64,000 bases of DNA from Candidatus Saccharimonadales bacterium (GCA_025449905.1 JANWIN010000012.1:45318-109317), one strand, 5' to 3'. Shown: positions 335 through 61,657, counted from the first letter of the stretch. The notes: a model not told the origin generated them from the sequence alone. Made by a program: numbers and translations.

Positions 335-931
335 GTGGCTAAGGATTTTAAGAATCTCGAGGATGAAGACTTAATAGAATTAATTAAAAATGGCGCGGTT
401 GGGGTCATTCCGACTGACACTGTTTACGGGCTGGTTTGTGCTGCTGCAAATGAATCGGCGGTCAAGCGCCTTTACGCTTTAAAAAAGCGCGAGCATAAAC
501 CCGGCACAGTTATTGCTGCTAATGTCGACCAACTCGTGGACCTTGGGCTTAAATATCGCTACGTCAAAGCCGTGGAAGAGTATTGGCCGAATGCCCTAAG
601 TATTATTGTGCCATTTAGCGATCCTCAAAGAAGTTATTTACGCCAGGGAAAGCCTGATATTGCCGTACGAATATCCAATGACAAGACACTTAACATGTTA
701 ACTATTGCTACCGGTCCGCTGTTGACCACCAGCGCCAACCAACCCGGCGAACCGACGGCCAATAATTTATCAGAAGCTCAAAAATATTTTGGCGATCAGG
801 TTGATTTTTATGTGGACGGCGGCGATTTATCTGACCGCGACCCTTCTACTATTATTAGAATCATTGACGATGAAGTTGAAGTCATGCGTGAGGGGGCTGT
901 TAAAATTGATGAGAATGGACGCGTAATATGA
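335..931 (+). CDS. tsaC: L-threonylcarbamoyladenylate synthase (YrdC/Sua5/TsaC family)
   Basis: GTG start; YrdC-domain motifs GVIPTDTVYGLVC and LLTTSANQPGEP. Confidence 0.85.
   Translation: MAKDFKNLEDEDLIELIKNGAVGVIPTDTVYGLVCAAANESAVKRLYALKKREHKPGTVIAANVDQLVDLGLKYRYVKAVEEYWPNALSIIVPFSDPQRSYLRQGKPDIAVRISNDKTLNMLTIATGPLLTTSANQPGEPTANNLSEAQKYFGDQVDFYVDGGDLSDRDPSTIIRIIDDEVEVMREGAVKIDENGRVI
690..701. repeat. TTAACATGTTAA palindrome copy 1 (inside tsaC, read as LNMLT)
   Basis: Perfect 12-mer; 21-mer acacttaacatgttaactatt identical to copy in dus. Confidence 0.9.
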
Positions 932-1275
932 ATTTTAATGACTACCAGAAAAAAGCTCTTAGTACCGATCTTGGCGCCGGCAAATCAAACAAATACGCCC
1001 ATGACCCAGCTTATGTTGATAAAATCTTAAGCTTTGTCGGCGAGGCTGGTGAAGTAGCTGAAAAGTATAAGAAAATAATCCGTGACAAGGGCGGCGTTAT
1101 TAGCAAGGAAGACAAACAGGAAATCATTAAAGAAATTGGTGATGTCCTTTGGTATATTGCAGTTCTTGCTGACTATTTAGGAGTTTCGTTAAACGAACTA
1201 GCTCAAGCCAATGTAGAAAAACTAGCCAGCCGCAAACAACGGAACAAATTATCCGGCAGAGGCGATAACCGATGA
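928..1275 (+). CDS. MazG-like nucleotide pyrophosphohydrolase
   Basis: Small all-alpha MazG pattern (GEAGEVAEKYKK, GDVLWYIAVLA, NVEKLASR); 4-nt overlap with tsaC. Confidence 0.8.
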   Translation: MNFNDYQKKALSTDLGAGKSNKYAHDPAYVDKILSFVGEAGEVAEKYKKIIRDKGGVISKEDKQEIIKEIGDVLWYIAVLADYLGVSLNELAQANVEKLASRKQRNKLSGRGDNR

Positions 1276-1724
1276 ATAAATTCGGCACGGCTACACCATA
1301 CATTGCGAGTTATGTCCTTTTAAAAAAGGGCAATAAAATCCTTTTTATTTTACGCAGCAATACCTCTTGGATGGATGGCAAGTGGGGCATTGCAGCAGGC
1401 AAGGTTGAAAATGATGAAACCTACGCTGAAGCGGCTATCCGTGAAGCTAAAGAAGAAGCAGGCGTTAAAGTTAAAGCTACCGATTTGCATCCCGTTCTTA
1501 CTATTCACAGAAAAGAAGCAGAAGACAAAACTAATATATGGGTAGACGTTTTCTTTGAAGCTACAAAATGGGAGGGCGATCCGTATAATGCTGAACCGCA
1601 CGTGCATGCTAAAGTGGAATGGTTTGATTTAAATAAATTGCCAGATAATATTGTGCCAATGCTTGGCTTTGCCTTAAAGCAAATCAAAGCCGGCAAAATA
1701 TATGCTGAATACGGCTGGAGCTAG
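1272..1724 (+). CDS. NUDIX hydrolase
   Basis: Nudix box GKVENDETYAEAAIREAKEEAGV; 4-nt overlap with upstream gene. Confidence 0.85.
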   Translation: MNKFGTATPYIASYVLLKKGNKILFILRSNTSWMDGKWGIAAGKVENDETYAEAAIREAKEEAGVKVKATDLHPVLTIHRKEAEDKTNIWVDVFFEATKWEGDPYNAEPHVHAKVEWFDLNKLPDNIVPMLGFALKQIKAGKIYAEYGWS

Positions 1725-3016
1725 GCCTTAAATTCTTTGCGAACCCACTCATCTAAGCTATCACCACCACCACCAGCCATAGCGACAACCATGTCGCCAG
1801 CTTTAAGGTGCTTTTCAATAACTGCTATTAATTTATCATCACGCTCAAGGGATTCAGCTATACTTGGGTCGCTCAAGTGCATAATTAATTCTTCGGGTGG
1901 GATGATTCTATCCTTGGGGTCTTCGCGGGCCAAATAACTTGGGATCCAGTAAACTTTTTTAGCGCCGTCAAAACAATTTCCATAATCGTCCATCATGTGA
2001 TGTTGGCGTCGATTGGTTAAAGGTTCATAAACAACCACCACGTTTTGGTTTTTATGGGCGGCCATTTCTAACGCCACACTCATAGCACCACGAATCTTTT
2101 CGGGCGTGTGAGCATAATCACTGTATAATCCGGGTACAATTTCTTCCATTCGCCGCTGCAGCCCAGGGAACTTGCTCATCAGCTCGATGAGTTTTTTAAT
2201 TGGCGTATTAGTAACTTCATGTACAGCTAGAATAGCCAGCCAGCCGTCTAGGCGGTTGTACTTGCCGCGTAAGTTAATATGTTGAATTTGCAGGTTTGCT
2301 GCATCTTGGATCGAAACGTTGTCTGCCTGATTCAAGCCTAAATAATCAGCATCATCCTGCCATAAGAATGTCCATTTGCTTTGAGAGATAAATTCCTTAA
2401 AAGCTTGCTGGTAATCTTCACGGGTGGGGAAAATCTCATGATGGTCCCAACTAACGCCGCTAATTAGACTTAAATAGGGCTTAAAGGCTAAAAAGTTCCT
2501 ATCAAACTCATCACACTCATAAACAAAGTATTCTGATAATTTTTTATATGCACCCATACCGCCAAAGCTAATTTTGGCGCCAACTGAGTAGCTCAGCGGC
2601 TGACCAAGCTCTTTAAATAACCAAACTAACATTGCTGTGGTAGTGGTTTTACCATGTGTGCCGGCCACGGCGATTAGTTTAAGTTTTTTATCGGTTAAAA
2701 TTTGGTTAATAAATTCATCACGTTTGGAAGTCTTAATATTCTGTTCGGTGCAAAACTTGAGCTCATCGGCATCGGGATTTTCTAGTGGCAGGGCCGAGGT
2801 GTAAACAAACCAATCAATCGGCTTCTCAGAGTGAACTTTAGCAATTTGCTCTTTGGACTGCCCAATGTGAATATTATTAAGTCCTTTATTTCGTAGATAC
2901 TCAATATACTGTGAATCCTGCTTATCAGAGCCGGATACTTCATAGCCGGCCTGTTTAGCAATCATAGCCAGCGGACCAATGGCCGTACCGCCAATACCGC
3001 TAAAGTAAACATGCAT
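1721..3016 (-). CDS. murC: Mur ligase family protein, MurC/Mpl-like (UDP-N-acetylmuramate--L-alanine ligase)
   Basis: N-terminal FSGIGGTAIGPLA..SGSD and Mur-ligase P-loop AGTHGKTTTT. Confidence 0.7.
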   Translation of the reverse strand: MHVYFSGIGGTAIGPLAMIAKQAGYEVSGSDKQDSQYIEYLRNKGLNNIHIGQSKEQIAKVHSEKPIDWFVYTSALPLENPDADELKFCTEQNIKTSKRDEFINQILTDKKLKLIAVAGTHGKTTTTAMLVWLFKELGQPLSYSVGAKISFGGMGAYKKLSEYFVYECDEFDRNFLAFKPYLSLISGVSWDHHEIFPTREDYQQAFKEFISQSKWTFLWQDDADYLGLNQADNVSIQDAANLQIQHINLRGKYNRLDGWLAILAVHEVTNTPIKKLIELMSKFPGLQRRMEEIVPGLYSDYAHTPEKIRGAMSVALEMAAHKNQNVVVVYEPLTNRRQHHMMDDYGNCFDGAKKVYWIPSYLAREDPKDRIIPPEELIMHLSDPSIAESLERDDKLIAVIEKHLKAGDMVVAMAGGGGDSLDEWVRKEFKA

Positions 3017-3041
3017 AGTTTAAAGTATAATCGTAACCAAG

Positions 3042-4506: not shown

Positions 4507-4701
4507 ATGGCTTACAAGCACACAAACTCAAAAGGTGTAACATACTACCTTAACTCAAAGAACGTAACACTTCGCGGTGGTAAAGACCAAAGAATTTATT
4601 ACTTCAGCAAAGACGAGCGCCCTGAAGGCACTGATCTGCCTGACGGTTTTGTAGTAAATGAAAACCCACGCAACGGCTTTTTGACCGTTAAAAGAAAATA
4701 A
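4507..4701 (+). CDS. small conserved-looking basic protein of unknown function (64 aa)
   Basis: Own promoter, strong RBS and intrinsic terminator; sequence KGVTYYLNSK...RIYYFSKD...LPDGFVVNENPRNGFLTVKRK. Confidence 0.7.
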   Translation: MAYKHTNSKGVTYYLNSKNVTLRGGKDQRIYYFSKDERPEGTDLPDGFVVNENPRNGFLTVKRK

Positions 4702-4722
4702 GACCTATTCTTAGGCAATTTA

Positions 4723-4752
4723 ACCGCTCGGGGACCACCTCGGGCGGTTTTT
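4723..4752 (+). terminator. intrinsic terminator
   Basis: 11-bp GC-rich stem (4723-4733 / 4738-4748) followed by TTTT. Confidence 0.75.
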
Positions 4753-4763
4753 AGTTTAAGGGG

Positions 4764-4792
4764 TTGTCAAGTAAGCATAAGTGTGATATAGT
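4764..4792 (+). promoter_or_regulatory. promoter giving a leaderless mRNA for 4799 CDS
   Basis: TTGTCA 4764-4769, 17 nt, TGaTATAGT (-10 at 4787-4792), only 6 nt to ATG 4799, no SD. Confidence 0.5.
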
Positions 4793-4798
4793 AGGCTT

Positions 4799-5377
4799 AT
4801 GGCTAGCAATCAATCTAACCCTGATGCCATCCAACCTGACAGTCCTTTGCAACAGTATAAGCGAGAGGTTCTTAGAACAGCAGGTCTGCCTGAATATGAG
4901 ATGGACGATCCAGCGAGACCATTTACCGAAGAGTATGACGAAAGTCTAAGGGACTCTGGCCCTCTAGGCGATACCCAATCTGATTTAGCAGCTCATGACT
5001 TGGAAGTTGACGCAGCTTCTAGACCGTCACCATCCAAAGAGACTCTTGTTGCTCGAGTAGATAGGTTGGCTGAGGCTGCTAAGAAGACTGGTGAAAAGGC
5101 TGTTAGAGCCAACGATCCTTATGAAGATCTAGGGGGCGGTATACGAACCTATAGAGAAGAAGGTAAATTAGAACTTGGCCGCAGACAAGATATTATTCAA
5201 ACGACCGCGCATGGCAGAGGCGGTCAGTTAGTAACCCGTCTAACCCTAAACGGTAAATTTCTAGATATACCGCAACGTGAAAGCGTGCCTCATGCGCCAG
5301 AGATAGAAAAAGCAAAAGATCTTTTAGTCAGCGGCCATGGTGCATCAGTTTCAAGGCTTTCCAAAAAGTCTAACTAG
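4799..5377 (+). CDS. hypothetical protein (acidic/disordered N-terminal half)
   Basis: 192 aa ORF, no recognisable domain. Confidence 0.55.
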   Translation: MASNQSNPDAIQPDSPLQQYKREVLRTAGLPEYEMDDPARPFTEEYDESLRDSGPLGDTQSDLAAHDLEVDAASRPSPSKETLVARVDRLAEAAKKTGEKAVRANDPYEDLGGGIRTYREEGKLELGRRQDIIQTTAHGRGGQLVTRLTLNGKFLDIPQRESVPHAPEIEKAKDLLVSGHGASVSRLSKKSN

Positions 5378-5392
5378 TATATAAATAGAGTA

Positions 5393-6325
5393 ATGCTAAA
5401 TCTACCCAAACCCTTTTTGGTGTTGGCGCCAATGGATGATGTAACCGACACGGTATTTCGCCAAATTGTGAACGACTGCGCTAAACCGGATCTATTTATA
5501 ACCGAGTTTGTAAACGTTGATGGTTTGCAGAGCCCTGGACGGCCTAAACTTCTACACAAGTTGGCTTTAAGTAGCAAAGAACAGCCAGTAATCGCTCAAA
5601 TTTGGGGTAAGAACCCTGAAAATTATTACAAAACCACTAAAGACCTAATAAATATGGGCTTTGACGGGGTAGATATAAATATGGGCTGTCCGGTGAAGGC
5701 TGTAGTGAAGAATGGCTGTTGCATCGCTTTAATTGATAACAGGGAACTGGCAGGGGAGATAATCGCAGCCGTCAGGGAAGCGGCAGGGAAGTACTTCCCT
5801 GTCAGCGTCAAAACGCGGCTGGGCCTAAAAACGGTAGATTTAAGCTGGATAGAATTCTTACTTGGTCAAACACTTAACATGTTAACTATTCATGGTCGTA
5901 CAGCCAAAGATTTGTCTAAAGTTCCGGCCAACTGGGATTTAATCGGCGAAGCCCGAGGTTTACGCGACCAGCTCTCACCTGCCACCTTGCTTGTTGGTAA
6001 CGGCGACGTTATTTCCCGACCCCAAGCACTAGAACTAGCTAATAAATATAAACTGGACGGCGTAATGATTGGCCGCGGTATTTTTGAAGACCCTTTTATT
6101 TTTTCTACTAGCTCGCCGTGGCCAAACTTTAACAAAGAACAAAAGATAGCTCTTTATAAAAATCACGTTGAGCTGTTTGCTAAGACTTACAAAAAAGGGG
6201 AGCGCGGGGTCAAAACTCTAAATAAATTTTGCAAAGTTTATATTAATGGGTTTGAAGGCGCCAAAGAATTGCGTGAAAGATTGATGCTGGCTAAAAGTAC
6301 TAACGAGCTGCTGGAACTACTTTAA
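5393..6325 (+). CDS. dus: tRNA-dihydrouridine synthase
   Basis: LAPMDDVTDTVFR, DINMGCP, HGRT motifs of the Dus TIM-barrel family. Confidence 0.9.
   Translation: MLNLPKPFLVLAPMDDVTDTVFRQIVNDCAKPDLFITEFVNVDGLQSPGRPKLLHKLALSSKEQPVIAQIWGKNPENYYKTTKDLINMGFDGVDINMGCPVKAVVKNGCCIALIDNRELAGEIIAAVREAAGKYFPVSVKTRLGLKTVDLSWIEFLLGQTLNMLTIHGRTAKDLSKVPANWDLIGEARGLRDQLSPATLLVGNGDVISRPQALELANKYKLDGVMIGRGIFEDPFIFSTSSPWPNFNKEQKIALYKNHVELFAKTYKKGERGVKTLNKFCKVYINGFEGAKELRERLMLAKSTNELLELL
5874..5885. repeat. TTAACATGTTAA palindrome copy 2 (inside dus, read as LNMLT)
   Basis: Perfect 12-mer, same 21-mer as copy 1. Confidence 0.9.
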
Positions 6326-6735
6326 AGCGGTAGTAAATCTACGGTTTGATTCACCAAAGGCTGGACCAGAGAATTAATCGGTCCCTCGGGCCTAGAGCTG
6401 GATTGGGCTTCTTGCGGCGTTGAAGCGCCTGAGCTTTTAGTCGCTAAACTAGGCGAGCTGTTTGCTGCTTCTACACCATTAGCAACTCTAGAGCTTGGGT
6501 TCAATGAATTGTTATTTGACGAGCTACCAGTCGCTGGCGGCGGACTATTTATCGCCAATGTCTGTTTATAATTCGGCTCTAGCCTTTCAGTAACTGCCGA
6601 AGCCGGTAGAACTGGAACGAACGGTTGTTTTGTCGGTCCTCGCATCACCAACAAAAGTCCTATTAAAATTACCAATAAAACGGTTAGTCTAATATCTCCT
6701 AGTACTCTAACCATGACTATAATTATGGCATTCAA
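6322..6735 (-). CDS. hypothetical membrane-anchored S/P/N-rich protein
   Basis: 137 aa ORF, N-terminal TM helix, low-complexity exterior part; start uncertain. Confidence 0.45.
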   Translation of the reverse strand: MNAIIIVMVRVLGDIRLTVLLVILIGLLLVMRGPTKQPFVPVLPASAVTERLEPNYKQTLAINSPPPATGSSSNNNSLNPSSRVANGVEAANSSPSLATKSSGASTPQEAQSSSRPEGPINSLVQPLVNQTVDLLPL

Positions 6736-6765
6736 CTAAAATGATTCTGTGAAAAACCTCACAGC

Positions 6766-6801
6766 GAATACTCCGTGGACATCTAAGCCCACGGAGTATT
6801 C
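6766..6801 (-). terminator. intrinsic terminator hairpin downstream of secreted paralog A
   Basis: gaatactccgtgg / ccacggagtattc 13-bp stem. Confidence 0.55.
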
Positions 6802-6822
6802 GACGGCTGTAGCCTAAAAGAA

Positions 6823-7614
6823 TTAGCCGTTAGCCGGATTTCGACCACCGGTGGCTACATAGCTTACGCAGTCACCTTGGTTTTTGAATGAATTACCGTC
6901 GGCATCTATCAGGTTCATCCAACCACCCTTTTTACATTCGTCTTTGTCGGCTGGTTGATCGTAATTGTAAACTTTGCCGTCAACATCGGTATTGTCAATT
7001 AAGAAAGTTTGCTCATTGTCTGGGTGCGCCCAAGAAGAATCAACAACAACGGAAACACCTAAAACCTGCAATCCCCCATAGTTGGTTAAAGCGTTAGGGT
7101 AGGGATCATAAAAAGTCCCACCTAGTTGTGAAGTATCCACTAGCTTGGCTGCGTCAAGCAAATCAGTGGTATTTTGCCAAACTCCCGGGATGCACGGCGG
7201 AGAAGCTGAGTCTGGGCCAAAGTAAACAAAAATGTTATCACCAGATGGGTCCGAATCTGCTGGGCCGGTTTCAGCGACTCGGATCTGGAAGCGTGGCGAA
7301 CCACCAACGCACAAATCATCGGCTTCTGGCTTGAAGTCTGTAGAAAGACTGTCTAAATCAGCAAAGGTAGTTCCGCCCGGTACGTTGTAGCTAACACCGC
7401 CGAAACCTGGGTCAGCATCAGATCTAATTTGTACGGCGTGCGGGGAAGCATTGCCGGGTGAGACAATTTGCGCATCGCCAAACAGCGTGTAGCCGGTGGC
7501 AGCACTGGCGACCCCGCTGGAAATTAGCGTTGCGGCTGAAAAAGCCAATCCTGTACCGATTGTCAGGAATTGCTTTTTGAATCTGTTAAATTTTTTTCTA
7601 ATGATATTTATCAT
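6823..7614 (-). CDS. secreted hypothetical protein, paralog A (C-terminal CKKGGW...FKNQGDCVSYV motif)
   Basis: GGAGG RBS before ATG at 7614 (ORF track start 7629 lacks RBS); signal-peptide-like N-terminus; shares GDAQ.V, RSD.DPGFG, TFADL, GSPRF, C.PG.WQNT blocks with 7725-8498. Confidence 0.7.
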   Translation of the reverse strand: MINIIRKKFNRFKKQFLTIGTGLAFSAATLISSGVASAATGYTLFGDAQIVSPGNASPHAVQIRSDADPGFGGVSYNVPGGTTFADLDSLSTDFKPEADDLCVGGSPRFQIRVAETGPADSDPSGDNIFVYFGPDSASPPCIPGVWQNTTDLLDAAKLVDTSQLGGTFYDPYPNALTNYGGLQVLGVSVVVDSSWAHPDNEQTFLIDNTDVDGKVYNYDQPADKDECKKGGWMNLIDADGNSFKNQGDCVSYVATGGRNPANG

Positions 7615-7680
7615 GTGACCTCCATTCATTTAACTTAAACTTTTTAACATTTTTACGTACTTATGACAGTTAAAAAAGTT

Positions 7681-7712
7681 ACAGCTCCGTCGAATACTCA
7701 CCACGGAGCTGT
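7681..7712 (-). terminator. intrinsic terminator downstream of paralog B
   Basis: acagctccgt / acggagctgt stem; T-run follows on minus strand. Confidence 0.65.
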
Positions 7713-7724
7713 ACAAACTTAAAC

Positions 7725-8498
7725 TTAATTGTTGTGCCAGAAGCTGTCTTCGTTCTCATTATCCTTCCACCAATTATCGTGGTGGTGATGATGGTGGTGG
7801 TGTCTATGGTTGTCAAAGGTGTACAACTTATTGTTAATTACCACGTTGTCTGCAAGTACAACTTGGCGGCCATCTCCACCGCTAGCTTCTTCGCTGTCGC
7901 CACCATCGACTATCAGCTTTATCTTATTTATCTGCAAGTCACCGAAGTTAGCTAAAACGTCATCGTAGGTACTACAAGCATCTCCACCCAGTTCAGATGT
8001 ATTGAAGCGACAAGCATCGTTATTACCAATCAATTCACCCGTATTTTGCCAACCAGGGTCACAATTCATGAAATCTGGTGATGGCCCAATGTAGACATAG
8101 ATATTACCTTCGTCGGTTTTTAGCTTAAACCGAGGTGAACCGTCACCACAGCCATCACCGTCTTTAATCTTATAGTCACCGCTAAGGTGAGTTAAATCAG
8201 CAAAAGTTTTATCATGTTTAAGTTTAAAACTTACAGCCCCAAAACCCGGGTCTTCATCCGAGCGCAATTTAACTATATTTTTATGCTGGTTGTGTTTGCG
8301 GACAAGCTGAGCATCACCTTGCAGTGAAAAGTTTTGCCTATTTTTCCAATTGTTCCACCAGTTCCCATTATCATTGCCATGCCAGCCATGAGCCATAGCC
8401 ACACTACCGGAAGCAGCTATACCCATAGGAAAGGATAGGGCTATTGTTATTAATAATAATCTACGTTTTAGGTATCTTAAGTTTATAATATGCTTCAT
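7725..8498 (-). CDS. secreted hypothetical protein, paralog B, with natural poly-His tract
   Basis: AAGGAG RBS; signal-peptide-like N-terminus; HRHHHHHHHH near C-terminus flanked by W/N-rich segments. Confidence 0.7.
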   Translation of the reverse strand: MKHIINLRYLKRRLLLITIALSFPMGIAASGSVAMAHGWHGNDNGNWWNNWKNRQNFSLQGDAQLVRKHNQHKNIVKLRSDEDPGFGAVSFKLKHDKTFADLTHLSGDYKIKDGDGCGDGSPRFKLKTDEGNIYVYIGPSPDFMNCDPGWQNTGELIGNNDACRFNTSELGGDACSTYDDVLANFGDLQINKIKLIVDGGDSEEASGGDGRQVVLADNVVINNKLYTFDNHRHHHHHHHHDNWWKDNENEDSFWHNN

Positions 8499-9951: not shown

Positions 9952-10395
9952 ATGTTCACAAAAACAAAAAACATTATAAAAAGTCCTTTTTGGCAGCAGT
10001 TTCGCGATACGCGGGCTATTGGCCTAGCGGCCTTTGCCGTTATTGCCGTACTAGTTACCTGGAGTGCTGGCAAAGCGGTGCAGAAAAATTATACTCTGCA
10101 AAAACAAATTTCGACGCTAAAACAACAAAACGACGTTAAAAAATTAGAAAACGAGAACTTGCGGCTTTCCAATCAGTACTATGAAACAGATAGGTTTTTA
10201 GAATTGGCCGCTCGGCGTCATTTTGGCAAGGCCGCACCCGGGGAAACGGTTGTATTTGTGCCAAAAAGTGTGGCTTTGGCTAACTCCACCAATATACCCA
10301 GTAGTATCCAAGCCCAAAAAATTATTAAACAAGCCGATAAACCTGCCTACCAGCGCAATTTTCAAAAATGGATAGATTTCTTCCTGCATCGTTAA
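9952..10395 (+). CDS. septum formation initiator family protein (FtsB/DivIC-like)
   Basis: N-terminal TM then coiled coil LQKQISTLKQQNDVKKLENENLRL and RHFGKAAPGETVV. Confidence 0.7.
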   Translation: MFTKTKNIIKSPFWQQFRDTRAIGLAAFAVIAVLVTWSAGKAVQKNYTLQKQISTLKQQNDVKKLENENLRLSNQYYETDRFLELAARRHFGKAAPGETVVFVPKSVALANSTNIPSSIQAQKIIKQADKPAYQRNFQKWIDFFLHR

Positions 10396-14006: not shown

Positions 14007-14102
14007 GTGGCAGATCTATTATCTAGTGGTTTGGAATTCGAACTCTTGCCGAGCTCGAACTCACAAATTGCTGAAGTCGACGCACTGTTAGCGGAGCTAT
14101 AA
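14007..14102 (+). CDS. candidate small protein (31 aa, acidic) not in ORF track
   Basis: AAAGGAG RBS 6 nt before GTG 14007; MADLLSSGLEFELLPSSNSQIAEVDALLAEL*; consensus promoter upstream. Confidence 0.4.
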   Translation: MADLLSSGLEFELLPSSNSQIAEVDALLAEL

Positions 14103-19525: not shown

Positions 19526-21307
19526 ATGGACCAAAGCAAGATTCGCAACTTCTGTATTATTGCGCACATCGACCATGGCAAAAGTACGCTGGCAGACCGT
19601 TTGCTGGAATTGACCGGTACGGTCGAAAAACGGGCGATGAAAAATCAGTTACTGGATCAAATGGATTTAGAGCGCGAGCGCGGCATCACTATTAAACTTC
19701 AGCCAGTCCGCATGAGTTATAAAGACCATGAACTAAACCTTATAGATACACCGGGGCATGTCGATTTTAGTTATGAAGTTTCGCGTAGCCTTGCTGCCTG
19801 CGAGAGCGCAATACTGGTGGTTGACGCCACCCAGGGCATCCAGGCCCAAACCTTATCCAATATTTATTTGGCACTATCCGCCAATCTAAAGATAATCCCC
19901 GTACTTAATAAAATTGATTTAGCGGCTGCTGATACTCAAAAAACATCAAAAGAAATTGTTGGCTTGCTGGGCTGTGACGAGAAAGATATTTTATTAGTTT
20001 CGGCTAAAACCGGTGAAGGGGTAGAAGTTGTTCTAGATAAAATTATCAGCGAAACTCCTCCGCCAAATGGTGAAGCCGATAAGCCGCTTCGGGCGCTGGT
20101 GTTTGACAGTTATTACGATGATTACCGCGGCGTAATTTTGTATGTACGGGTTATGGATGGGCAAATTGCTAAAAACAGTCAAATTAAAATGATGGCCACC
20201 ACCGCCGAAGGCATTGCCCTCGAAGTTGGTTCCCTAAAACCGGATATGAATAGTGCTGCCAGCCTGCAAAGTGGAGAAATTGGCTACATTGTCACTAGCC
20301 TAAAAAGTGCTCATGAAGCCCGCGTTGGTGACACAGTCTCACTTGTATCTAAACCGGCTCAAGAACCGCTGGCCGGCTACAAAGAAATTAGGCCATTTGT
20401 CTACGCCGGCTTTTTCCCAATCAGCAATGAGGACTATCAAGACCTAAAAGAGGCTGTTGAAAAATTAAGTCTAAGCGATTCGTCCCTGCAGTTTACGACT
20501 GAAAATTCACAAGTTCTTGGTTTCGGGCTAAGGATTGGTTTCTTGGGTCTTTTGCATCTAGACATTGTCCGCGAGCGTTTGGAGCGCGAGTATAACCTTG
20601 AGCTAATTATCACTAATCCGTCGACCGATTACGAGGTTATACTAACCAGTGGTGAAAATTTGGACTTAAAAAATGCCGCTGAACTACCAGATGTCTCTAA
20701 TGTCATGGAAATAAAAGAACCTTGGATAAAAGGTGAAATAGTCGTGCCCAAAAACTATGTTGGAGCGATTTTGCAACTAGTGGCTGGTAAAAGGGGGCAT
20801 CAAAAGAATGTATCGTATATGGAAGGTGACTTAGCGGTTGTTGACTTTGAAGCGCCACTGGCTAATTTACTAACAGATTTTTATGATCAGCTAAAAAGCA
20901 TTACCAGCGGTTACGGCTCATTCAATTATGAACTGGCCGATTATCGGGCAGAAGACCTAGTCCGCTTAGACTTTTACGTCGCTGGCGAGATAATTAACAT
21001 GTTAAGTATTATTGTGCATCGCAGCGAAGCCGAAACGTTAGGCCGTCGAACCGTTGAAAAACTCAAAGACGTAATTCCCCGCCAGCAGTTTAAAGTTAGC
21101 CTGCAAGCAGCCATTGGCGGCAAGTTTATAGCCCGTGAAGACATCAGTGCCTACCGAAAGGATGTAACGACTGGTTTATACGGTGGCGATGTTACACGCA
21201 AGAAAAAACAACTAGCCAAGCAAAAGAAGGGCAAAGAACGACTCAAAAAATTTGGCAAGGTTGATATTCCACCCGAGGCCTTCACTGTTATGCTCAGACG
21301 CGATTAG
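19526..21307 (+). CDS. lepA: elongation factor 4 (LepA)
   Basis: G1 AHIDHGKST, DTPGHVDF, NKID; LepA-specific C-terminal domain. Confidence 0.95.
   Translation: MDQSKIRNFCIIAHIDHGKSTLADRLLELTGTVEKRAMKNQLLDQMDLERERGITIKLQPVRMSYKDHELNLIDTPGHVDFSYEVSRSLAACESAILVVDATQGIQAQTLSNIYLALSANLKIIPVLNKIDLAAADTQKTSKEIVGLLGCDEKDILLVSAKTGEGVEVVLDKIISETPPPNGEADKPLRALVFDSYYDDYRGVILYVRVMDGQIAKNSQIKMMATTAEGIALEVGSLKPDMNSAASLQSGEIGYIVTSLKSAHEARVGDTVSLVSKPAQEPLAGYKEIRPFVYAGFFPISNEDYQDLKEAVEKLSLSDSSLQFTTENSQVLGFGLRIGFLGLLHLDIVRERLEREYNLELIITNPSTDYEVILTSGENLDLKNAAELPDVSNVMEIKEPWIKGEIVVPKNYVGAILQLVAGKRGHQKNVSYMEGDLAVVDFEAPLANLLTDFYDQLKSITSGYGSFNYELADYRAEDLVRLDFYVAGEIINMLSIIVHRSEAETLGRRTVEKLKDVIPRQQFKVSLQAAIGGKFIAREDISAYRKDVTTGLYGGDVTRKKKQLAKQKKGKERLKKFGKVDIPPEAFTVMLRRD
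20994..21005. repeat. TTAACATGTTAA palindrome copy 3 (inside lepA, read as INMLS)
   Basis: Perfect 12-mer with right flank GTATT. Confidence 0.9.
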
Positions 21308-31702: not shown

Positions 31703-31723
31703 CGCTTGTGGTATTATTTTGCT

Positions 31724-35341: not shown

Positions 35342-35926
35342 ATGGTTGCGACCCTAAATGGCACTGTATCAGAAAAAATACTGGACCAAGTGGTGGTTGA
35401 AGTTAATGGCGTTGGCTATGGAGTACTAGTTACTGCCGAAGACTATCAAAAATTAAGTGTAGGCAAAAAAGCTAAGCTTTATATTTATGAGTATATCCGA
35501 GACAACGCCGACGATTACTATGGCTTCTTATCATTAGAGACAAAGGGGTTGTTTGAACTACTCTTAACTGTCAATGGTGTTGGGCCGCGCATGGCGCTTA
35601 ACATGTTAAGTATTGGCGGAGTAGGCGAAGTCCGAGCGGCCATAGCTAGCGGTGATGTTAAGCTGTTGCAATCAGCACCGGGTGTTGGCAAGCGAGTGGC
35701 AGAGAGAGTTATAGTTGATCTAAAGGATAAAGTTGGCTTAGTAGATACCTCTGACCCAAGAGTCTTGTTCGCCAGTTCGGCTGCTGCGACCAAGGACGAA
35801 GCCGTCCAGGCATTGATTGCCCTTGGCTATAGCGCTCCGGACGCTCTTGATTCGCTGCACAAAGTTGATTCAACCTTGCCAACCCAGGAGCGAGTTAAAC
35901 AAGCGCTTAAGGAAATAAAAGTATGA
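35342..35926 (+). CDS. ruvA: Holliday junction branch migration protein RuvA
   Basis: [31 protein letters not shown] HhH motifs; ATG 35342 (TTG 35339 alternative). Confidence 0.9.
35598..35609. repeat. TTAACATGTTAA palindrome copy 4 (inside ruvA, read as LNMLS)
   Basis: Perfect 12-mer with right flank GTATT. Confidence 0.9.
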
Positions 35927-46468: not shown

Positions 46469-46483
46469 AAAAAGCATAAGCAA

Positions 46484-47779: not shown

Positions 47780-48377
47780 AATTACCTCTATAAAACAGCA
47801 GGTCAAGGATTCAAAACGCTATTCGATTTTTATTGACGGGAAATATAGTTTTTCGCTCAGCGAGCTGGCGCTAATAAACAGCGAGCTAAAACTTGGGCAG
47901 GAAATTTCTAAGAGTGAGCTAAAAAACTTCAAGCAAGAATCAGACCTAGATAGAGCCTACAACCGAGTTTTAAATCTGTTAGCACGCCGATCACGCAGCC
48001 AATGGGAAGTTGAAGATTACTTAAAACGCAAAAAATACGATAGTGAACAGATTGAAAAAATACTTAACAAGTTAAGGGACAGGTATTTAATAAATGATTT
48101 ATCATTTGCCAATGCTTGGATAGAAAATCGTCGTCTGCTTAAAAACATGAGCAAACGCAAACTAATGCAGGAACTGCGAGCTAAACGGATTAACGACGAA
48201 ATCATCAATGAAGTCATGGGTCTGGACGAAACCGGCGAGCTGGAAGTCTTAAAAGAACTGGTTGCCAAAAAGCGCAGCCAAAGTCGTTATAAGGATGACT
48301 TAAAACTCATGCAATATTTATCTCGCCAAGGTTTCAACTACAACGATATTAAGACTGTCCTACAAAAAGAAGACTAA
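47772..48377 (+). CDS. recX: recombination regulator RecX
   Basis: MAKITSIKQQ..R..I.IDG start typical of RecX; three-helix repeat region; GTG 47745 is an alternative start. Confidence 0.8.
   Translation: MAKITSIKQQVKDSKRYSIFIDGKYSFSLSELALINSELKLGQEISKSELKNFKQESDLDRAYNRVLNLLARRSRSQWEVEDYLKRKKYDSEQIEKILNKLRDRYLINDLSFANAWIENRRLLKNMSKRKLMQELRAKRINDEIINEVMGLDETGELEVLKELVAKKRSQSRYKDDLKLMQYLSRQGFNYNDIKTVLQKED
48064..48075. repeat. one-mismatch variant TTAACAAGTTAA (inside recX)
   Basis: 20-mer aaaatacttaacaagttaag identical to variant in glyA (61567-61586). Confidence 0.75.
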
Positions 48378-53948: not shown

Positions 53949-54590
53949 ATGTTTAAGTTAGCATTCCTAATCTTGATTGGACTGATAATTATACTGCCCA
54001 CTGGGCGTGCTAAAACCAAGAAAAAAATTAGCAATGAGCTCACGCGCAAAATACCGCACCTAGTGGGCGCAACTATTTATGCTGCAGCGCCTTTCTTGGT
54101 TGATATGAGAATCGTTAGCCTCTTGGCACTACTCAATTTGGTGGTGGCAATGCTAGCCAGAAAGTACGGTTGGTTTTCTATCGCCCGCAGCGTAGGTCGT
54201 AAAACGTGGGGCGATATTTTCTTTCCCATCGGCGTACTGATAACTAGTTTATTAACGGACTCTAACTGGGTGTTTGCAGCGGCTATGTTAAATCTCGGTA
54301 TTGCCGACGCAGCTGCGGCCTTGGTCGGCAAAAGATTTGGCGGTCGCTTTACGTACAAAATTGCCGGCCAAACAAAAAGTATTATCGGCAGCTGGGCATT
54401 TTGGCTGACAGCTTTTCTAGTAACTTCAATTGCTTTATCTCATCTTGGAGTTGGTGATTCTATGTATTGGCAAACGCTTGTTTGGCTGCCTCTTATTTTG
54501 ACGGCTGCTGAAAACGCCGGGGTTTACGGCCTTGATAATTTATCAATCCCAATTCTAACGGCCTGTATGCTTAACATGTTAAGCATTTAA
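53949..54590 (+). CDS. CTP-dependent polyprenol/diacylglycerol kinase or cytidylyltransferase family membrane protein
   Basis: GIADAAAALVGKRFG......KS..GS.AFW pattern of the CdsA/dolichol-kinase superfamily. Confidence 0.65.
   Translation: MFKLAFLILIGLIIILPTGRAKTKKKISNELTRKIPHLVGATIYAAAPFLVDMRIVSLLALLNLVVAMLARKYGWFSIARSVGRKTWGDIFFPIGVLITSLLTDSNWVFAAAMLNLGIADAAAALVGKRFGGRFTYKIAGQTKSIIGSWAFWLTAFLVTSIALSHLGVGDSMYWQTLVWLPLILTAAENAGVYGLDNLSIPILTACMLNMLSI
54567..54586. repeat. TTAACATGTTAA palindrome copy 5, extended to 20-bp perfect palindrome
   Basis: atgcTTAACATGTTAAgcat; encodes LNMLSI* of the plus gene and ELNA* of the minus gene (12-nt convergent overlap). Confidence 0.9.
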
Positions 54591-56438
54591 TTCATTGAAT
54601 CTCTTAGTCTTATGTTTCGGCGAGCCGTGAGCTCGGAGGGCATTAAAAATTACTATTACATCAACAGTCTCTTGGATAGCAGCCCCATAAATAGGTTTAA
54701 AGCGACCACTTGCAAATATCACCATCAGTAAAACACTCAAACTAATACCTATCCAAATACTTTGCTTGGCGATAAAAAAAGTTCGTTTAGCTATAGAAAT
54801 ACCAGTGGCTACTCTGCCGATATCATCAAGCATAATCACCACATCAGCCGATTCACTTGCTGCAGCTGATCCACGCGCACCCAAAGCAATGCCGACATCG
54901 GCAGCCGTCAAAACTGGCGCATCATTTACGCCGTCACCGACAAATCCAACCGGCCGCGGCTTGGCTTCTTCCACGATTTTTATTTTGTCGGCTGGCAAAG
55001 CCTCTGCGTAAACCTTATCAATGCTTAGCCGGCCAGCAATTTTACTGGCGGCCTCTTTGGTGTCGCCGGTGACCATCAAAAATTGTTTTACGCCAAACTT
55101 TTTCAGTTTCTCTAGAGTTGTTGAACTTTCTGGCCGGATTTCGTCTTTAAAGCTTATTACTGCTGCCAATTTTTTGTCTATGGCCACAAATACAACGGTC
55201 TGATTTTTGAGTGAAGTCTCGGGCAAGGCGACAGAGTGTTTTTTAAGTAGGCTATCACGTCCGACTAAAATATGTTTGCCATGGACATTCGCCGATAGTC
55301 CCAAACCGGCTTCATCGCTAATATTTTTAGCCTTAGGGAATTTAATTTTTTTCGTGTTAGCTTCATGGACAATGGCTTTAGCCAGTAGATGGTTGGAATT
55401 ATGTTCAGCAGCCGCGGCCATGCGTAAGACTTCTTCCTTCTCCAGACCTCCAAAAGTTTTTACTTGCTCAACAACCAGTTGACCCTTAGTTAGGGTGCCG
55501 GTTTTGTCAAAAGCCATGGTATTGATATCTGCCAGACGCTCTAACGCGCCACCATTTTTAATGATAATGCCATGTTTGGCTGAGCGACTCATACCAGAAA
55601 TAAGAGCAATCGGTGCGGCTAAGATAAGCGGGCAAGGAGTGGCAACAACCATAACCTCCAAAAATCTAATTGATTCGCCGCTAATCACCCAGGCGCCTAT
55701 GGCGATTGCAAAGGCTAAAATAGTGAAGGGAATGCTGTAGCGATCAGCCAGCCTAATAAAAGGCGATTTTGAGGAAGCCGCTTCGGCAACCAGCTTTACA
55801 ATTTGCTCATATTGACTGTCTTTGGCAGCCCGTAGAGCCCGAGCCGTTACTGCGCCATCAAGATTTATTGAGCCACTCAATAGCTCTTCATCTACTTGTT
55901 TAGCATTTGGTAGGCTCTCGCCGGTTAAACTAGACTCGTCAAAATTAGCCGTGCCTTCAATTATCACTGCATCAACTGGCACTTGCTCTCCGGCTTTAAT
56001 TACAATTTTATCGCCGGGTTTAACTTGGCTAGCCAGGACATCAACAGTCTTTCTGCCACGCAGAACGTGGGCCTTTTTAGGGGCGCTAGAAAGTAGGGCA
56101 TCAAGCTCTGTCTTGGCCCTATTGGCAGCGTAATTCTCCAGTGCTTCGCCACCCAGAAGCATCACCAAAATAATCATGGCTGCCCAATACTCACCAAAAA
56201 TCACAGCACTGACAATTGCTGTAGCGGCTAGAAGATCAACGCCATAAGTGCCACTTCGGAGCTCACGTAGCATATCCCAAACAATCGGAATAGTCATACC
56301 AATGGCTACTGTCGACAAAAAAATCTGTGGCTCGTCACGATATCCGGCTATAAATAAGGGCAGGGCAATCAAAATAGAAGCAACCACAAAACTAAATTGC
56401 TTATATTCTTTTATGAACTCACCAATTCTTTTAAACAT
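54579..56438 (-). CDS. heavy-metal P1B-type ATPase without N-terminal metal-binding domain
   Basis: DKTGTLT, TGD, GDGVNDAP; TM6 motif TPCP. Confidence 0.9.
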   Translation of the reverse strand: MFKRIGEFIKEYKQFSFVVASILIALPLFIAGYRDEPQIFLSTVAIGMTIPIVWDMLRELRSGTYGVDLLAATAIVSAVIFGEYWAAMIILVMLLGGEALENYAANRAKTELDALLSSAPKKAHVLRGRKTVDVLASQVKPGDKIVIKAGEQVPVDAVIIEGTANFDESSLTGESLPNAKQVDEELLSGSINLDGAVTARALRAAKDSQYEQIVKLVAEAASSKSPFIRLADRYSIPFTILAFAIAIGAWVISGESIRFLEVMVVATPCPLILAAPIALISGMSRSAKHGIIIKNGGALERLADINTMAFDKTGTLTKGQLVVEQVKTFGGLEKEEVLRMAAAAEHNSNHLLAKAIVHEANTKKIKFPKAKNISDEAGLGLSANVHGKHILVGRDSLLKKHSVALPETSLKNQTVVFVAIDKKLAAVISFKDEIRPESSTTLEKLKKFGVKQFLMVTGDTKEAASKIAGRLSIDKVYAEALPADKIKIVEEAKPRPVGFVGDGVNDAPVLTAADVGIALGARGSAAASESADVVIMLDDIGRVATGISIAKRTFFIAKQSIWIGISLSVLLMVIFASGRFKPIYGAAIQETVDVIVIFNALRAHGSPKHKTKRFNELNA

Positions 56439-58025: not shown

Positions 58026-58787
58026 ATGGGAAAAACTAATCTTAAATTGGAAAACGCGCCTATTGTGGGAGTAACTGCAACTCATTACACAGAACCAAAA
58101 GAAGTTCGTTTTCAGCTGGCTAAAAAAACTGTGGAGGCATGGAGAAAAGCTGGCCTACCGCTTATTGTTGCTGATACATCACCTAAGTCTTGGGTCGTGG
58201 ATGAATTGGCAGATCGAGGGGCTATTATATGCCCCAAACCCAGCCCGGGCTTAGCAACCCAGTATATAGACGGTGTAAATTTTGCGCTCAAGAACGGCGC
58301 AAAGAAAATTCTAACCGCCGAGCCAGAAAAAATTGATCTAGCCAAATTTGCCCTTGACCCCATTAGCCATAGTCTAGAGCATAGCGATATTGTTGTGGTG
58401 GGCAGGACTCTTAAATCTATGCGCTCATTACCGACTTACCAAGCAAAAATTGAAGAAGCCACAGCTTTGGTATTTGAAAAGTTTGGTTATCCGCCAGACG
58501 TTATGTCCGGCATCCGTGCTTATTCAAAAGAAGGCGCTAAAGTGTTCGTTAAATATGATGCTGATAAATATGGCAACAACTGGGTTCGCTTGCATGAACC
58601 TTTAGTCCGAGCTCGCAAAAAGGGACTGAAGATAACTGGGGTCTTGATAGATCTTATATATCCGCAAGAGGTTCGCGACCAAGAACAAGATAATCCCGCC
58701 TTTGACATGAAACGGCTTGACCAAAGCCTAATACATTTACAGTGGCTTCTAAAACAAGAGGGCTACAAGATAAGCTTCCCAGTTTAA
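58026..58787 (+). CDS. hypothetical protein (Rossmann-like alpha/beta pattern)
   Basis: 253 aa ORF; 4-nt convergent overlap with murA fusion gene. Confidence 0.5.
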   Translation: MGKTNLKLENAPIVGVTATHYTEPKEVRFQLAKKTVEAWRKAGLPLIVADTSPKSWVVDELADRGAIICPKPSPGLATQYIDGVNFALKNGAKKILTAEPEKIDLAKFALDPISHSLEHSDIVVVGRTLKSMRSLPTYQAKIEEATALVFEKFGYPPDVMSGIRAYSKEGAKVFVKYDADKYGNNWVRLHEPLVRARKKGLKITGVLIDLIYPQEVRDQEQDNPAFDMKRLDQSLIHLQWLLKQEGYKISFPV

Positions 58788-60304
58788 ATTTCGTTTAAGA
58801 CCTGGATATTAGCACCAAGGCTGTTGAGGCGTTCGGCTAAATCTTCATAGCCACGATTGATTGAGTAAACATTTCTAAGAGTCGACATGCCGTCAGCGGC
58901 AAGCATGCCAATTAGTAAAATCACGGCTGGCCGCAGGGCCGGTGGGCAGGCGACATCGGCGGCGCTGAACTTTGTTGGCCCATCTATGTAAGCACGGTGT
59001 GGATCGGCCAGAGTGACATTGGCGCCTAGCTTACGCATCTCGGTATAATAAAGTGCCCGCTCGTCATAGACCCAGTCATGTATTAAAGTGCGGCCTTTAG
59101 CTACGGCGGCAATTGGAATAAAGTAGGGCAGGTTATCAATATTAAGTCCCGGGTAAGGGCGGGCATAAATCTTTTCATCCAAAGCTTCTAGCTTGCCATG
59201 ATGTTTATAAATTGTGACGTTGGCCAGTTCGGTGTGGCCATTATGAGCCTTATATTGCGAAGAAACTTTAAACCTTAGACCCATTTTTTTAAGCTTTAGT
59301 AGTTCCAGTTCCAAAAACTCAATTGGTGCTCGCTTAATTGTGATTTCCGAGTCTGTAGTTATAGCCGCCGCAATGAAAGTCATGGCTTCAATCGGGTCTT
59401 CGCTTGGGTAATATGTAACATTCTTTTTTATCTCACGCACGCCTTGAACTCGCAGCGTGCTGGTACCAATGCCCTCAATTTTGACCCCCAGCTTTCTCAA
59501 AAAGAAACACATATCCTGCACCATGTAATTAGCGCTAGCCATTTTTATAACTGTTTCCTGCTCAAAACGCGCAGCGGCCATCAAAACATTTTCAGTGGTA
59601 GTATCACCAGATTCATAAAGTACTATTTGCGGCGTATGTTTTCTATTGACTGTGACGTTGTAGTGACCGCTTTTAGCCAGGATGTTGACGCCTAGTTCCT
59701 CCAAGGCAAATAAATGTGGCTGAACAGTTCTTGTACCCAAACGACAGCCGCCGGCGTAGGGAATCTTAAATTCATTGAATATATGCATCAGCGGCCCAAG
59801 CATCATGAGCACGCTGCGGGTTTTGCGAGCTGCGGATTTATTCATCTTGGCCATATTAGGTTTAGCTGGTGGTTTAATTTCCAAATCGTTACCGGCCAGC
59901 CATTTAACCTGCACACCGATACTCTCTAAAACTTCAATAATACGATTAACTTCCTCAATTCGCGGCATGGCTTTGAGCCGAGTCGTGCCTTTGTTAAGTA
60001 GAGCAGCAAAGAGTAGGGCTACTGCTGCATTTTTAGAAACCTTGGTTTCAATCGAGCCTTTTAGCTCATGGCCGCCCTCCACTCGCAGATTCATTGAGCT
60101 ACCGGAAATGCTGATAATTGGCTTTTGCAGAACGTCGCTAATGCGTCCCAAGGTATCTAAGCTAAGGTTTTGTTTACCATGTTCAATCCGGTTGACGGCC
60201 GATTGGCTGGTGCCAAGCTGGCGGGCAAAAGCGGCTTGGGTTAGTCCGCGGTCTTGCCTTAATTGATAAATAAGATGGCCAATTTTTTCGTTTGTGGAGG
60301 GCAT
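58784..60304 (-). CDS. murA: XRE-type HTH domain fused to UDP-N-acetylglucosamine 1-carboxyvinyltransferase (MurA)
   Basis: N-terminal LRQDRGLTQAAFARQLGTSQSAVNRIEHGKQN, then MurA body with catalytic-loop Cys (YAGGCRLGTRTVQPH). Confidence 0.85.
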   Translation of the reverse strand: MPSTNEKIGHLIYQLRQDRGLTQAAFARQLGTSQSAVNRIEHGKQNLSLDTLGRISDVLQKPIISISGSSMNLRVEGGHELKGSIETKVSKNAAVALLFAALLNKGTTRLKAMPRIEEVNRIIEVLESIGVQVKWLAGNDLEIKPPAKPNMAKMNKSAARKTRSVLMMLGPLMHIFNEFKIPYAGGCRLGTRTVQPHLFALEELGVNILAKSGHYNVTVNRKHTPQIVLYESGDTTTENVLMAAARFEQETVIKMASANYMVQDMCFFLRKLGVKIEGIGTSTLRVQGVREIKKNVTYYPSEDPIEAMTFIAAAITTDSEITIKRAPIEFLELELLKLKKMGLRFKVSSQYKAHNGHTELANVTIYKHHGKLEALDEKIYARPYPGLNIDNLPYFIPIAAVAKGRTLIHDWVYDERALYYTEMRKLGANVTLADPHRAYIDGPTKFSAADVACPPALRPAVILLIGMLAADGMSTLRNVYSINRGYEDLAERLNSLGANIQVLNEI

Positions 60305-60371
60305 ACGTACAAAAGTATACCATCTAGGATATAAAAAACAAGAAGTATTAAACCTGTTAAAATATATCTAA

Positions 60372-61631
60372 ATGAAAGATAAAGAAATTGAGAAGTTAAT
60401 TAAGGCCGAAGTTGTGCGTCAAAGCGAGGGCTTGGAAATGATCCCCAGCGAAAATCATACTTCGACGGATGTGCTGAAAGCTTTGGGTTGTCGGCTGACT
60501 GACAAATACTCGGAAGGCTATCCGGGGATGCGTTACTACGGCGGCTGCGAAGTAGTCGATGCTGTCGAAAATCTAGCCCGCGATCGCGCTAAAAAACTAT
60601 TTGGCACGACCCATGCTAATGTTCAGCCATATTCCGGCTCGCCGGCTAACCAAGCTGTTTATTTTGCGCTGCTTGATCCCGGTGACACCGTTATGGGCAT
60701 GGACCTGTACTTTGGCGGTCATATGACCCATGGGCTGAAAGTTAATTTCTCTGGCAAATGGTTTAATTCAGTTTTGTACCAAACTGGCAAGGACGGTTAC
60801 CTAGATTACGAAGCTATGGCCAAGATGGCAGTCAAAGAAAAGCCAAAAATGATTATTGCCGGCGCAACGGTATACCCGCGAATTTTTGATTGGGAAAAAC
60901 TAAAAGCTATAGCCGACAGCGTCGGTGCTTGGTTTTTAGCCGACGTATCGCACATTGCTGGATTGATTGTCGCTGGTGAGCATCCTTCGCCCGTCGGTCT
61001 GGCTGACGTTGTCATGACGACAACACATAAAACCCTACGCGGGCCGCGCGGGGCAATCTTACTCTGTAACGGCAAAGAGTCAACACCGCTCAAAAAAGTT
61101 GAACGCCAGCGCGAAAATCTGCCGACGCTAATTGATCGGGCCATCATTCCGGGTTTGCAGGGTGGTCCTCACAATCATCAGACGGCCGCTATTGCCGTGG
61201 CCTTGAACGAAGCCGCCCAACCAGCTTTTAAAACTTATGGGCAACAAGTCGTTAAAAACGCTAAAACTCTAGCTAATGAATTAACTAACCGCGGCTATAA
61301 TTTAGTAACCGGCGGCACAGACAATCACTTAATGTTAATAGACCTTAGCAGTAAGGGCGTACTCGGCGCCGAAGCGGAGAAAGCCCTAGGCAAGGCGGGC
61401 ATCACTGTCAATAAAAACACCGTGCCATTTGACCCAAGACCACCATTTAGCCCGTCAGGGATAAGGTTAGGGACGCCCGCACTAACAACTCGGGGCATGA
61501 AAGAAGCCGAAATGGTGCAAGTAGCCGGCTGGATAGACCAAGCTATCACCCACTCCGCTGACGATAAAATACTTAACAAGTTAAGCATAGAGATTAAGGC
61601 CTTTTGTAAGCAGTATCCCCTACCTGCTTAA
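60372..61631 (+). CDS. glyA: serine hydroxymethyltransferase
   Basis: SENHTS, YGGCE, PLP site TTTHKTLRGPRG. Confidence 0.97.
   Translation: MKDKEIEKLIKAEVVRQSEGLEMIPSENHTSTDVLKALGCRLTDKYSEGYPGMRYYGGCEVVDAVENLARDRAKKLFGTTHANVQPYSGSPANQAVYFALLDPGDTVMGMDLYFGGHMTHGLKVNFSGKWFNSVLYQTGKDGYLDYEAMAKMAVKEKPKMIIAGATVYPRIFDWEKLKAIADSVGAWFLADVSHIAGLIVAGEHPSPVGLADVVMTTTHKTLRGPRGAILLCNGKESTPLKKVERQRENLPTLIDRAIIPGLQGGPHNHQTAAIAVALNEAAQPAFKTYGQQVVKNAKTLANELTNRGYNLVTGGTDNHLMLIDLSSKGVLGAEAEKALGKAGITVNKNTVPFDPRPPFSPSGIRLGTPALTTRGMKEAEMVQVAGWIDQAITHSADDKILNKLSIEIKAFCKQYPLPA
61573..61584. repeat. one-mismatch variant TTAACAAGTTAA (inside glyA)
   Basis: Same 20-mer as in recX. Confidence 0.75.
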
Positions 61632-61635
61632 AACT

Positions 61636-61657
61636 AATACTTAACATGTTAAGTATT
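61636..61657. repeat. TTAACATGTTAA palindrome copy 6, extended to 22-bp perfect palindrome; likely bidirectional terminator hairpin
   Basis: aatacTTAACATGTTAAgtatt between convergent glyA and murB. Confidence 0.9.

Follow-up and report, generated by a model that had tools for sequence, protein, structure and literature searches.

A conserved palindrome in and between housekeeping genes of a Candidatus Saccharimonadales bacterium, a candidate operator of a MarR-type dimer

Genes and palindrome copies in the window

We analyzed a palindrome that recurs in and between the housekeeping genes of a 64,000-nucleotide stretch of DNA from a Candidatus Saccharimonadales bacterium (GCA_025449905.1 JANWIN010000012.1:45318-109317), hereafter called the window. 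The genes concerned are tsaC, dus, lepA, ruvA, recX, glyA and murB, and the window also encodes ComEC and components of a type IV pilus (PilM, pilins, PilC, PilB). All of these had been named in a first reading of the DNA by a model that was given nothing but the sequence (the sequence-only reading), and all were confirmed; the measured GC content of ~0.43 was close to its estimate of ~45%. That reading had also listed eight copies of a 12-bp palindrome, and every coordinate was correct. The perfect 12-mer TTAACATGTTAA starts at 690, 5874, 20994, 35598, 54571 and 61641, and a variant with one mismatch, TTAACAAGTTAA, starts at 48064 and 61573. The longer identities were found as described, namely a 21-mer shared by the tsaC and dus copies, a 17-mer shared by those of lepA, ruvA and the glyA/murB spacer, and a 20-mer shared by the two variants.

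The repeat is therefore real, but the 12-mer is not the entire element. When the flanks of the copies were compared, it turned out to be the core of a longer dyad of 20-24 bp, which is perfect over 20 bp between glyA and murB (Table 1). With up to three mismatches allowed, the 20-mer palindrome ATACTTAACATGTTAAGTAT had seven matches in the window, compared to 0.00 expected. Dinucleotide shuffles of the window contained on average 0.40 sequences with at most one mismatch to the 12-mer, and none of 100 shuffles reached the observed eight. Under a third-order Markov model, sub-words of the motif ranked first in enrichment among all 9- and 10-mers (for example CTTAACATGT, with nine copies vs 0.08 expected). 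Every copy of ATACTTAAC and six of the seven copies of TACTTAAC fell within the eight sites. These tests, and the synonymous-codon test described below, agree with the earlier claim of an excess over chance.

Seven of the eight copies lie in coding sequence, six of them within genes. The seventh, at 54571, had been placed at a convergent junction. This is true, although the site is more precisely located within the overlapping 3' ends of two convergent open reading frames (ORFs).

Table 1. Sites of the palindrome, with positions counted from the first nucleotide of the window
Site	Position	Sequence	Remarks
tsaC	686..705	ACACTTAACATGTTAACTAT	two outer mismatches to the 20-mer consensus; peptide TLNMLTI
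dus	5870..5889	ACACTTAACATGTTAACTAT	directly precedes the conserved IHGRT motif
lepA	20990..21009	ATAATTAACATGTTAAGTAT	lineage-specific
ruvA	35594..35613	GCGCTTAACATGTTAAGTAT	
recX	48060..48079	ATACTTAACAAGTTAAGGGA	central AA variant
convergent ORFs	54567..54586	ATGCTTAACATGTTAAGCAT	overlapping 3' ends of 53949-54590(+) and the P-type ATPase gene 54579-56438(-); A>G/T>C change symmetric
glyA 3' end	61569..61588	ATACTTAACAAGTTAAGCAT	43 nt before the end of the glyA ORF, stop codon included
glyA/murB spacer	61637..61656	ATACTTAACATGTTAAGTAT	perfect 20-bp palindrome; 39-nt spacer between convergent genes

Selection on DNA rather than on protein

The coding copies were assessed with 1000 synonymous-codon shuffles of 69 ORFs. 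The shuffles contained a mean of 0.086 exact copies, compared to the five observed in coding sequence. Peptides of the class [LIFV]N[MK]L[TSIMNKR] occurred seven times in the ORFs of the window, all seven encoded by exactly the motif codons, and the class itself was 8-fold over-represented (7 vs 0.87). It should be noted that the other two frames of the 12-mer contain TAA on either strand, so that only one frame is left open. The 'NML' reading is thus forced, and agreement in frame is no evidence.

A comparison with orthologues was most informative for lepA. None of 80 lepA orthologues carries the site. They read V-[D/G/E]-A-L-S, with alanine in 77 of the 80, whereas the window reads I-N-M-L-S, with this alanine changed to methionine. 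As the sequence-only reading had proposed, the host gene did not change in length: the site region shows no indel across the 80 orthologues, and codons were replaced. The closest relatives of this LepA belong to Saccharibacteria/Saccharimonadales (best 78% amino acid identity), and the closest relative already carries the right arm in its coding sequence (GCGTTAAGTATT). In this lineage, the left arm was built by substitutions that sacrificed conserved residues.

The situation was different for ruvA. The peptide ALNMLS is common in 120 RuvA homologues and is the norm within Saccharibacteria. An argument from the residues of the Escherichia coli proteins, made earlier for both genes, thus holds for LepA and fails for RuvA, although the ruvA codons are conserved: CTTAACATGTTAAG is kept at the DNA level in orthologues with 85% and 67% amino acid identity, while the flanking synonymous positions differ. 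The codon shuffles, the lepA substitutions and the frozen ruvA codons all indicate that selection acts at the DNA level and not at the protein level. The palindrome would then be a clear case of a DNA-binding site that shapes the protein sequence of housekeeping genes.

With respect to the tsaC and dus copies, their shared 21-mer (686-706 and 5870-5890) includes the same two asymmetric outer mismatches (ACAC...CTAT). Orthologues of dus elsewhere have the perfect ATAC...GTAT, unlike the dus copy in the window. The two sites are 5 kb apart, and their identity may stem from short-patch gene conversion or from a parallel protein constraint, as both copies encode TLNMLTI.

Occurrence and positional conservation in relatives

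Two sets of sequences were used for comparison, namely 1.3 Mb of related metagenome-assembled genome (MAG) sequence around lepA, and at least 120 metagenome loci selected for the motif. In the 1.3 Mb, TACTTAAC-NN-GTTAAGTA had ~10 perfect and ~20 near matches, i.e., approximately one site per 43 kb (~30 in total), compared to one per 8 kb in the window and one per 13-17 kb in syntenic sister loci. The palindrome was found in Saccharibacteria and in other Patescibacteria. Alignment of 121 metagenome sites yielded the consensus AAWTACTTAAC-WW-GTTAAGTAWTT. At the centre, 87% of these sites have A/T, and the flanks are conserved as A/T-rich (AAW...WTT). The commonest variant, TTGAC, is found on one arm only and is thus asymmetric.

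These features make it hardly credible that the palindrome is a target or by-product of restriction-modification, methylation or repair, for instance a HIP1-like palindrome kept by biased repair. It does contain CATG and TTAA, and it is made by point substitution in coding DNA. However, a specificity of 16-24 bp far exceeds the sites of methyltransferases and restriction enzymes, the central dinucleotide varies and CATG is not required, the density is low, and no restriction-modification genes were seen in the window. HIP1 of cyanobacteria is likewise a palindrome iterated throughout the genome that spreads by substitution, but it is 8 bp long and 10-100 times denser.

Single sites were found to keep their positions. 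Five loci carry the perfect ATACTTAACATGTTAAGTAT at the orthologous position of dus, and four carry TACTTAACAAGTTAAGTA at the same position of recX, at a local protein identity of 45-57%. In glyA, the motif lies 50-56 nt before the ORF end in five loci, and a near-variant, GCTTAACATGTTAAGTAAT, occupies the same position in another one, giving six glyA loci in all. In relatives, 13-17 kb of syntenic DNA hold no copy other than the ruvA site, and the same is true of the corresponding DNA in the window. In dus, recX, glyA and ruvA the orthologous sites align codon for codon, with motif codons frozen and flanks drifting; a comparison of this kind had been suggested in the sequence-only reading. 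Since the motif codons are frozen while the flanks drift across relatives, single sites are under long-term purifying selection, with occasional gain (lepA) and loss.

A site in murC, whose codons are likewise frozen in relatives, is conserved in five other species and absent from the window. Upstream of murJ, at 17865-17885, the window has a degenerate remnant, TACTAGGTGTTAAGCG; three related loci have a perfect site there, with an ABC-2 permease gene on one side and murJ on the other. Taken with the gain in lepA, which is specific to this lineage and lies 3 kb away, the remnant suggests turnover of sites.

Association with MarR-family genes

Where a site adjoins a gene start, the gene repeatedly belongs to the MarR family. 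The palindrome lies ~20-31 nt upstream of the start codons of MarR-family genes in the loci L198/L211/L214, L185, L143, L148, L216 and L219, which represent several deep lineages. In L198/L211/L214 and L185, marR is the first gene of an efflux operon (marR-HlyD-FtsX-ABC), and the site is located 21-22 nt upstream of it. At these Paceibacteria-like loci no second copy occurs within 10-17 kb, and one of the genomes is a Candidatus Pacebacteria. A second MarR subfamily, of 155-157 aa, follows ksgA in Saccharimonadia, and L143 and L148 carry the site upstream of it. Two further loci, L216 (Saccharimonadales) and L219, were selected only for their homologous proteins and not for the motif; in each, the spacer of 75-80 nt upstream of marR contains the site (AGCTTGACATGTTAAGTAT in L216, TACTTGACATGTTAAGTA in L219). 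Among the matches listed, marR genes of these subfamilies were present in 5 of 120 motif-selected loci, compared to none in the 1.3 Mb of lepA neighbourhoods.

In L219, the putative marR operator has an identical second copy at a distance of 4 kb (9953-9970 and 14056-14073). The identity includes six bases on either side, 30 nt in total, and the second copy lies 36 nt after a pilin-like (N_methyl) gene.

MarR-family proteins contact the minor groove with their wings, and the A/T-rich flanks of the palindrome are predicted to fit such contacts. Like the operators of MarR and SlyA, the palindrome has two arms of 5-8 bp around a 2-bp A/T centre and is located upstream of a marR-family gene, including that of a marR-efflux operon. 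Of the 12 positions of its core, 9-10 agree with the SlyA consensus TTAGCAAGCTAA (PMC5797941). The palindrome differs from these operators in being longer (20-24 bp) and more strictly conserved, and in that its binding is a prediction. Its sites are also not confined to the promoters of a small regulon, as those of a MarR operator would be: most copies lie within genes or where convergent genes end, and there they persist across genera. We presume, in addition, a resemblance to marO of E. coli, although a literature search for the marO sequence gave unrelated hits only.

The dyad as the unit and its placement relative to genes

Outside near-palindromes, the arm TACTTAAC occurred 27 times in the 1.3 Mb, compared to 29 expected. 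As there is no excess of half-sites, the functional unit is the full dyad, as expected for a dimeric DNA-binding protein, and not an oriented uptake signal. The comparisons therefore favor the earlier suggestion that the palindrome is the site of a sequence-specific DNA-binding protein.

In the metagenome loci, 68 of 125 sites were intergenic and 46% were in coding sequence. The density per kb was 2.13 in convergent spacers, 0.57 in co-directional and 0.16 in divergent ones, and 0.105 in coding sequence; intergenic copies followed the upstream stop codon at a median distance of ~11 nt. Coding copies were evenly spread along genes and had no bias towards convergent neighbours (31% vs ~36% expected). 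In the window, six of the eight copies lie within 500 nt of a convergent junction; we do not rely on this pattern, because the larger metagenome set shows no such bias for coding copies. The convergent genes of the window often overlap.

This placement could suggest a bidirectional intrinsic terminator or another RNA hairpin that acts at the RNA level and whose apical stem is conserved by chance. Such an element would account for the short distance to stop codons, for a density in convergent spacers 13-fold higher than in divergent ones, for the A-tract and T-tract on the flanks, and for the 13 of 121 sites with at least seven extra palindromic bases of variable sequence. We nevertheless regard it as quite improbable. 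The stem is AT-rich and weak. At 61637..61656 the predicted hairpin has -6.9 kcal/mol on one strand and -10 kcal/mol on the other. Over three sites that are intergenic or at a 3' end, the folding energies range from -3.1 to -10.6 kcal/mol, and of five folds only two were better than those of shuffled sequences (z ~-2.2 and -2.7). No hairpin was predicted for the mid-gene copies tested (tsaC, lepA and ruvA), yet coding copies are conserved without folding. The window copies have no long U-tract. Terminator-like hairpins occur in the window at chance level (23 vs 19.2 expected), and of those listed for 46-64 kb none falls on any of the four sites in this interval. An Rfam search gave no family match for the palindrome and found only 10 tRNAs. 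Furthermore, the core is conserved at phylum-level divergence with almost no compensatory change, the centre prefers A/T, and the asymmetry of the commonest variant (TTGAC on one arm) argues against an element defined by structure only. Repetitive extragenic palindromic (REP) elements share the placement at 3' ends and convergent junctions, but mobile palindromes of the REP/MITE type are extragenic insertions that add length, whereas the coding copies described here add none.

The sequence-only reading had favored a DNA uptake sequence, i.e., that import by the type IV pilus and ComEC prefers the palindrome and that copies accumulate by transformation-driven molecular drive. The window encodes the machinery. 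In line with the known signals, the DNA uptake sequence (DUS) of Neisseria and the uptake signal sequence (USS) of Haemophilus and other Pasteurellaceae, the palindrome is enriched in its own core genome, and its copies arise by substitution within core genes at some cost to the protein. It also favors 3' ends, with some copies in terminator-like hairpins, as DUS and USS do. In addition, several host loci serve genome maintenance (ruvA, recX and a MazG/HhH-GPD junction). We consider this explanation very unlikely, however. DUS and USS occur about once per kb, and the palindrome is 10-40 times sparser. They are asymmetric signals that work as single copies and form inverted pairs at terminators only, while the perfect dyad is obligate here and half-sites have no excess. 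Single sites keep their position across deep divergence, with no turnover. Finally, the site is found at a fixed distance upstream of marR genes, where it is predicted to be used as a promoter operator, and Paceibacteria-like loci have a single copy, at the marR promoter.

A dedicated chromosome-organising protein other than the MarR homologue, analogous to ParB at parS, MatP at matS or Noc at its binding sites (NBS), might also maintain copies where they do least harm. The palindrome resembles these sites in that they are palindromes of 13-16 bp or more, present in tens per genome, often in conserved genes, and maintained at the DNA level. Copies lie in coding DNA and in DNA free of promoters, and they avoid divergent promoter regions; their spacing in the window is fairly even (5-15 kb), and their density varies between lineages and loci. 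In contrast, the sequence is unrelated to the canonical parS TGTTNCACGTGAAACA, and no parS with up to two mismatches was found in the window or in L001-L080. The window contains neither parB nor dnaA and no clear skew switch, and no ori or ter landmark is tied to the sites. The association with marR promoters is specific and repeated, and it points to a binder of another protein family. A separate organiser of this kind is, in our view, unlikely. As for the parS/NBS/matS-like site that had been listed as an alternative, the parS match thus fails, an organising function is still allowed, and the likely binder is a MarR-family protein.

Three other candidates were rejected. A LexA/SOS box was ruled out because the upstream region of recA has no copy. 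A promoter element was ruled out as well: TTAACA resembles a -35 element, but no -10 element is conserved at the right distance in the 121 aligned flanks. A scan of viral contigs gave 10 matches without a flank consensus, which is about chance level by a rough estimate, and a phage origin was dismissed.

Proposed function

From these comparisons we propose, with moderate confidence, that the palindrome is a high-affinity operator of a conserved Patescibacterial MarR-type dimer, autoregulatory at marR promoters, with extra copies kept elsewhere in Saccharibacteria. A dimeric winged-helix regulator of the MarR family would bind the consensus dyad. At the promoter of its own gene, the dyad would be a classical autoregulatory operator, in the contexts of ksgA-marR in Saccharimonadia and of marR with HlyD/FtsX/ABC efflux genes in a Paceibacteria-like lineage. 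The extra copies in Saccharibacteria are kept by purifying selection on DNA. They lie just past stop codons, especially between convergent genes, or in coding regions that can accommodate a peptide of the type (L/I)N(M/K)L(S/T). At these non-promoter copies, bound dimers may form symmetric roadblocks, or insulators, that restrain antisense transcription and read-through. Such a role would fit because the convergent bias is strong, convergent genes overlap and intrinsic terminators are not enriched. A role as architectural anchors fits equally well.

Several observations weigh against a MarR-type operator. It is gene adjacency that identifies MarR as the candidate binder, and no marR gene is present in the window. 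Like other 3'-end sites, those upstream of marR follow shortly after the stop codon of the preceding gene, and a general 'punctuation' role could explain part of the association. One operator would have to serve two MarR subfamilies with an identity of only ~28%, and a local MarR repressor normally does not have tens of conserved intragenic sites. About 10% of the intergenic copies form part of longer palindromes that vary in sequence, are partly GC-rich and have A- and T-tracts, which points to a hairpin or terminator function at those loci. Moreover, most metagenome loci were assigned to a taxon only by their homology to genes of the window.

A broader proposal is tentative, and we doubt it more than we believe it: one MarR-type protein and a 24-bp palindrome might form a genome-wide punctuation system in Saccharibacteria, possibly in Patescibacteria more widely. 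Roadblocks or insulators in convergent gene ends and in the coding sequence of essential genes would replace intrinsic terminators in ultra-compact genomes, and selection for them would override near-invariant residues, as in the change from alanine to methionine in LepA. If the non-promoter copies do function in this way, they would be a new answer to how transcription ends in genomes with overlapping convergent genes.

MarR operators are well known. What would be unusual here is that 24 bp are conserved across a class, that the copies are mostly intragenic or at convergent ends, and that they are kept across genera at the expense of protein conservation. A literature search on the motif and on uptake sequences or palindromes in Saccharibacteria returned nothing relevant. 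Almost nothing is known about gene regulation and chromosome organisation in Patescibacteria (candidate phyla radiation, CPR). The palindrome provides a precisely defined cis-element together with a candidate binder, the MarR homologue of 155-170 aa encoded beside ksgA, and target positions that are conserved across uncultured lineages: dus, recX, the 3' end of glyA, ruvA, murC, the MazG/HhH-GPD junction, the region upstream of murJ and the marR promoter. An operator-repressor pair of this kind could become a genetic tool for Saccharibacteria, which are naturally transformable.

Other features of the window and its relatives

Apart from the palindrome, the window contains a direct repeat of ~100 nt (89% identical) at 31600-31705, upstream of recA, and at 46365-46470, upstream of an unannotated ORF of 165 aa, which is followed by a tRNA and comEC. 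The repeat had no match in Rfam. It may be a leader or regulatory element that genes for recombination and for competence have in common. Another motif, AACAGGGGTAA, recurs intergenically at 4392, 9704(-), 13385, 14329 and 28471, with a 4-fold excess of CAGGGGT, and is possibly associated with promoters. The sequence CCACCGGTGG is found at 6845, 17497 and 47196, ~30-fold over expectation. At least two of these three copies are coding (ftsH and recA), and we read its recurrence as having a protein-level cause rather than as a DNA element.

Two loci stood out by their proteins. The gene at 58784-60304 (-) encodes a 506-aa protein of unusual architecture, in which an N-terminal helix-turn-helix domain of the Cro/C1 type (HTH_3) is fused to a full EPSP-synthase/MurA-type domain. 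The cluster at 28633-31432 encodes a MATCAP-like carboxypeptidase, a putative ATP-dependent zinc protease and a RimK-type ATP-grasp ligase, adjoins a gene for a GGDEF protein (27809-28414), and may be a peptide-tail modification module. Among the relatives, the Saccharimonadales MAG locus L216 encodes at 4557-7787 a UvrD/PcrA helicase that carries an intein and has 1076 aa, compared to 718 aa in L219.

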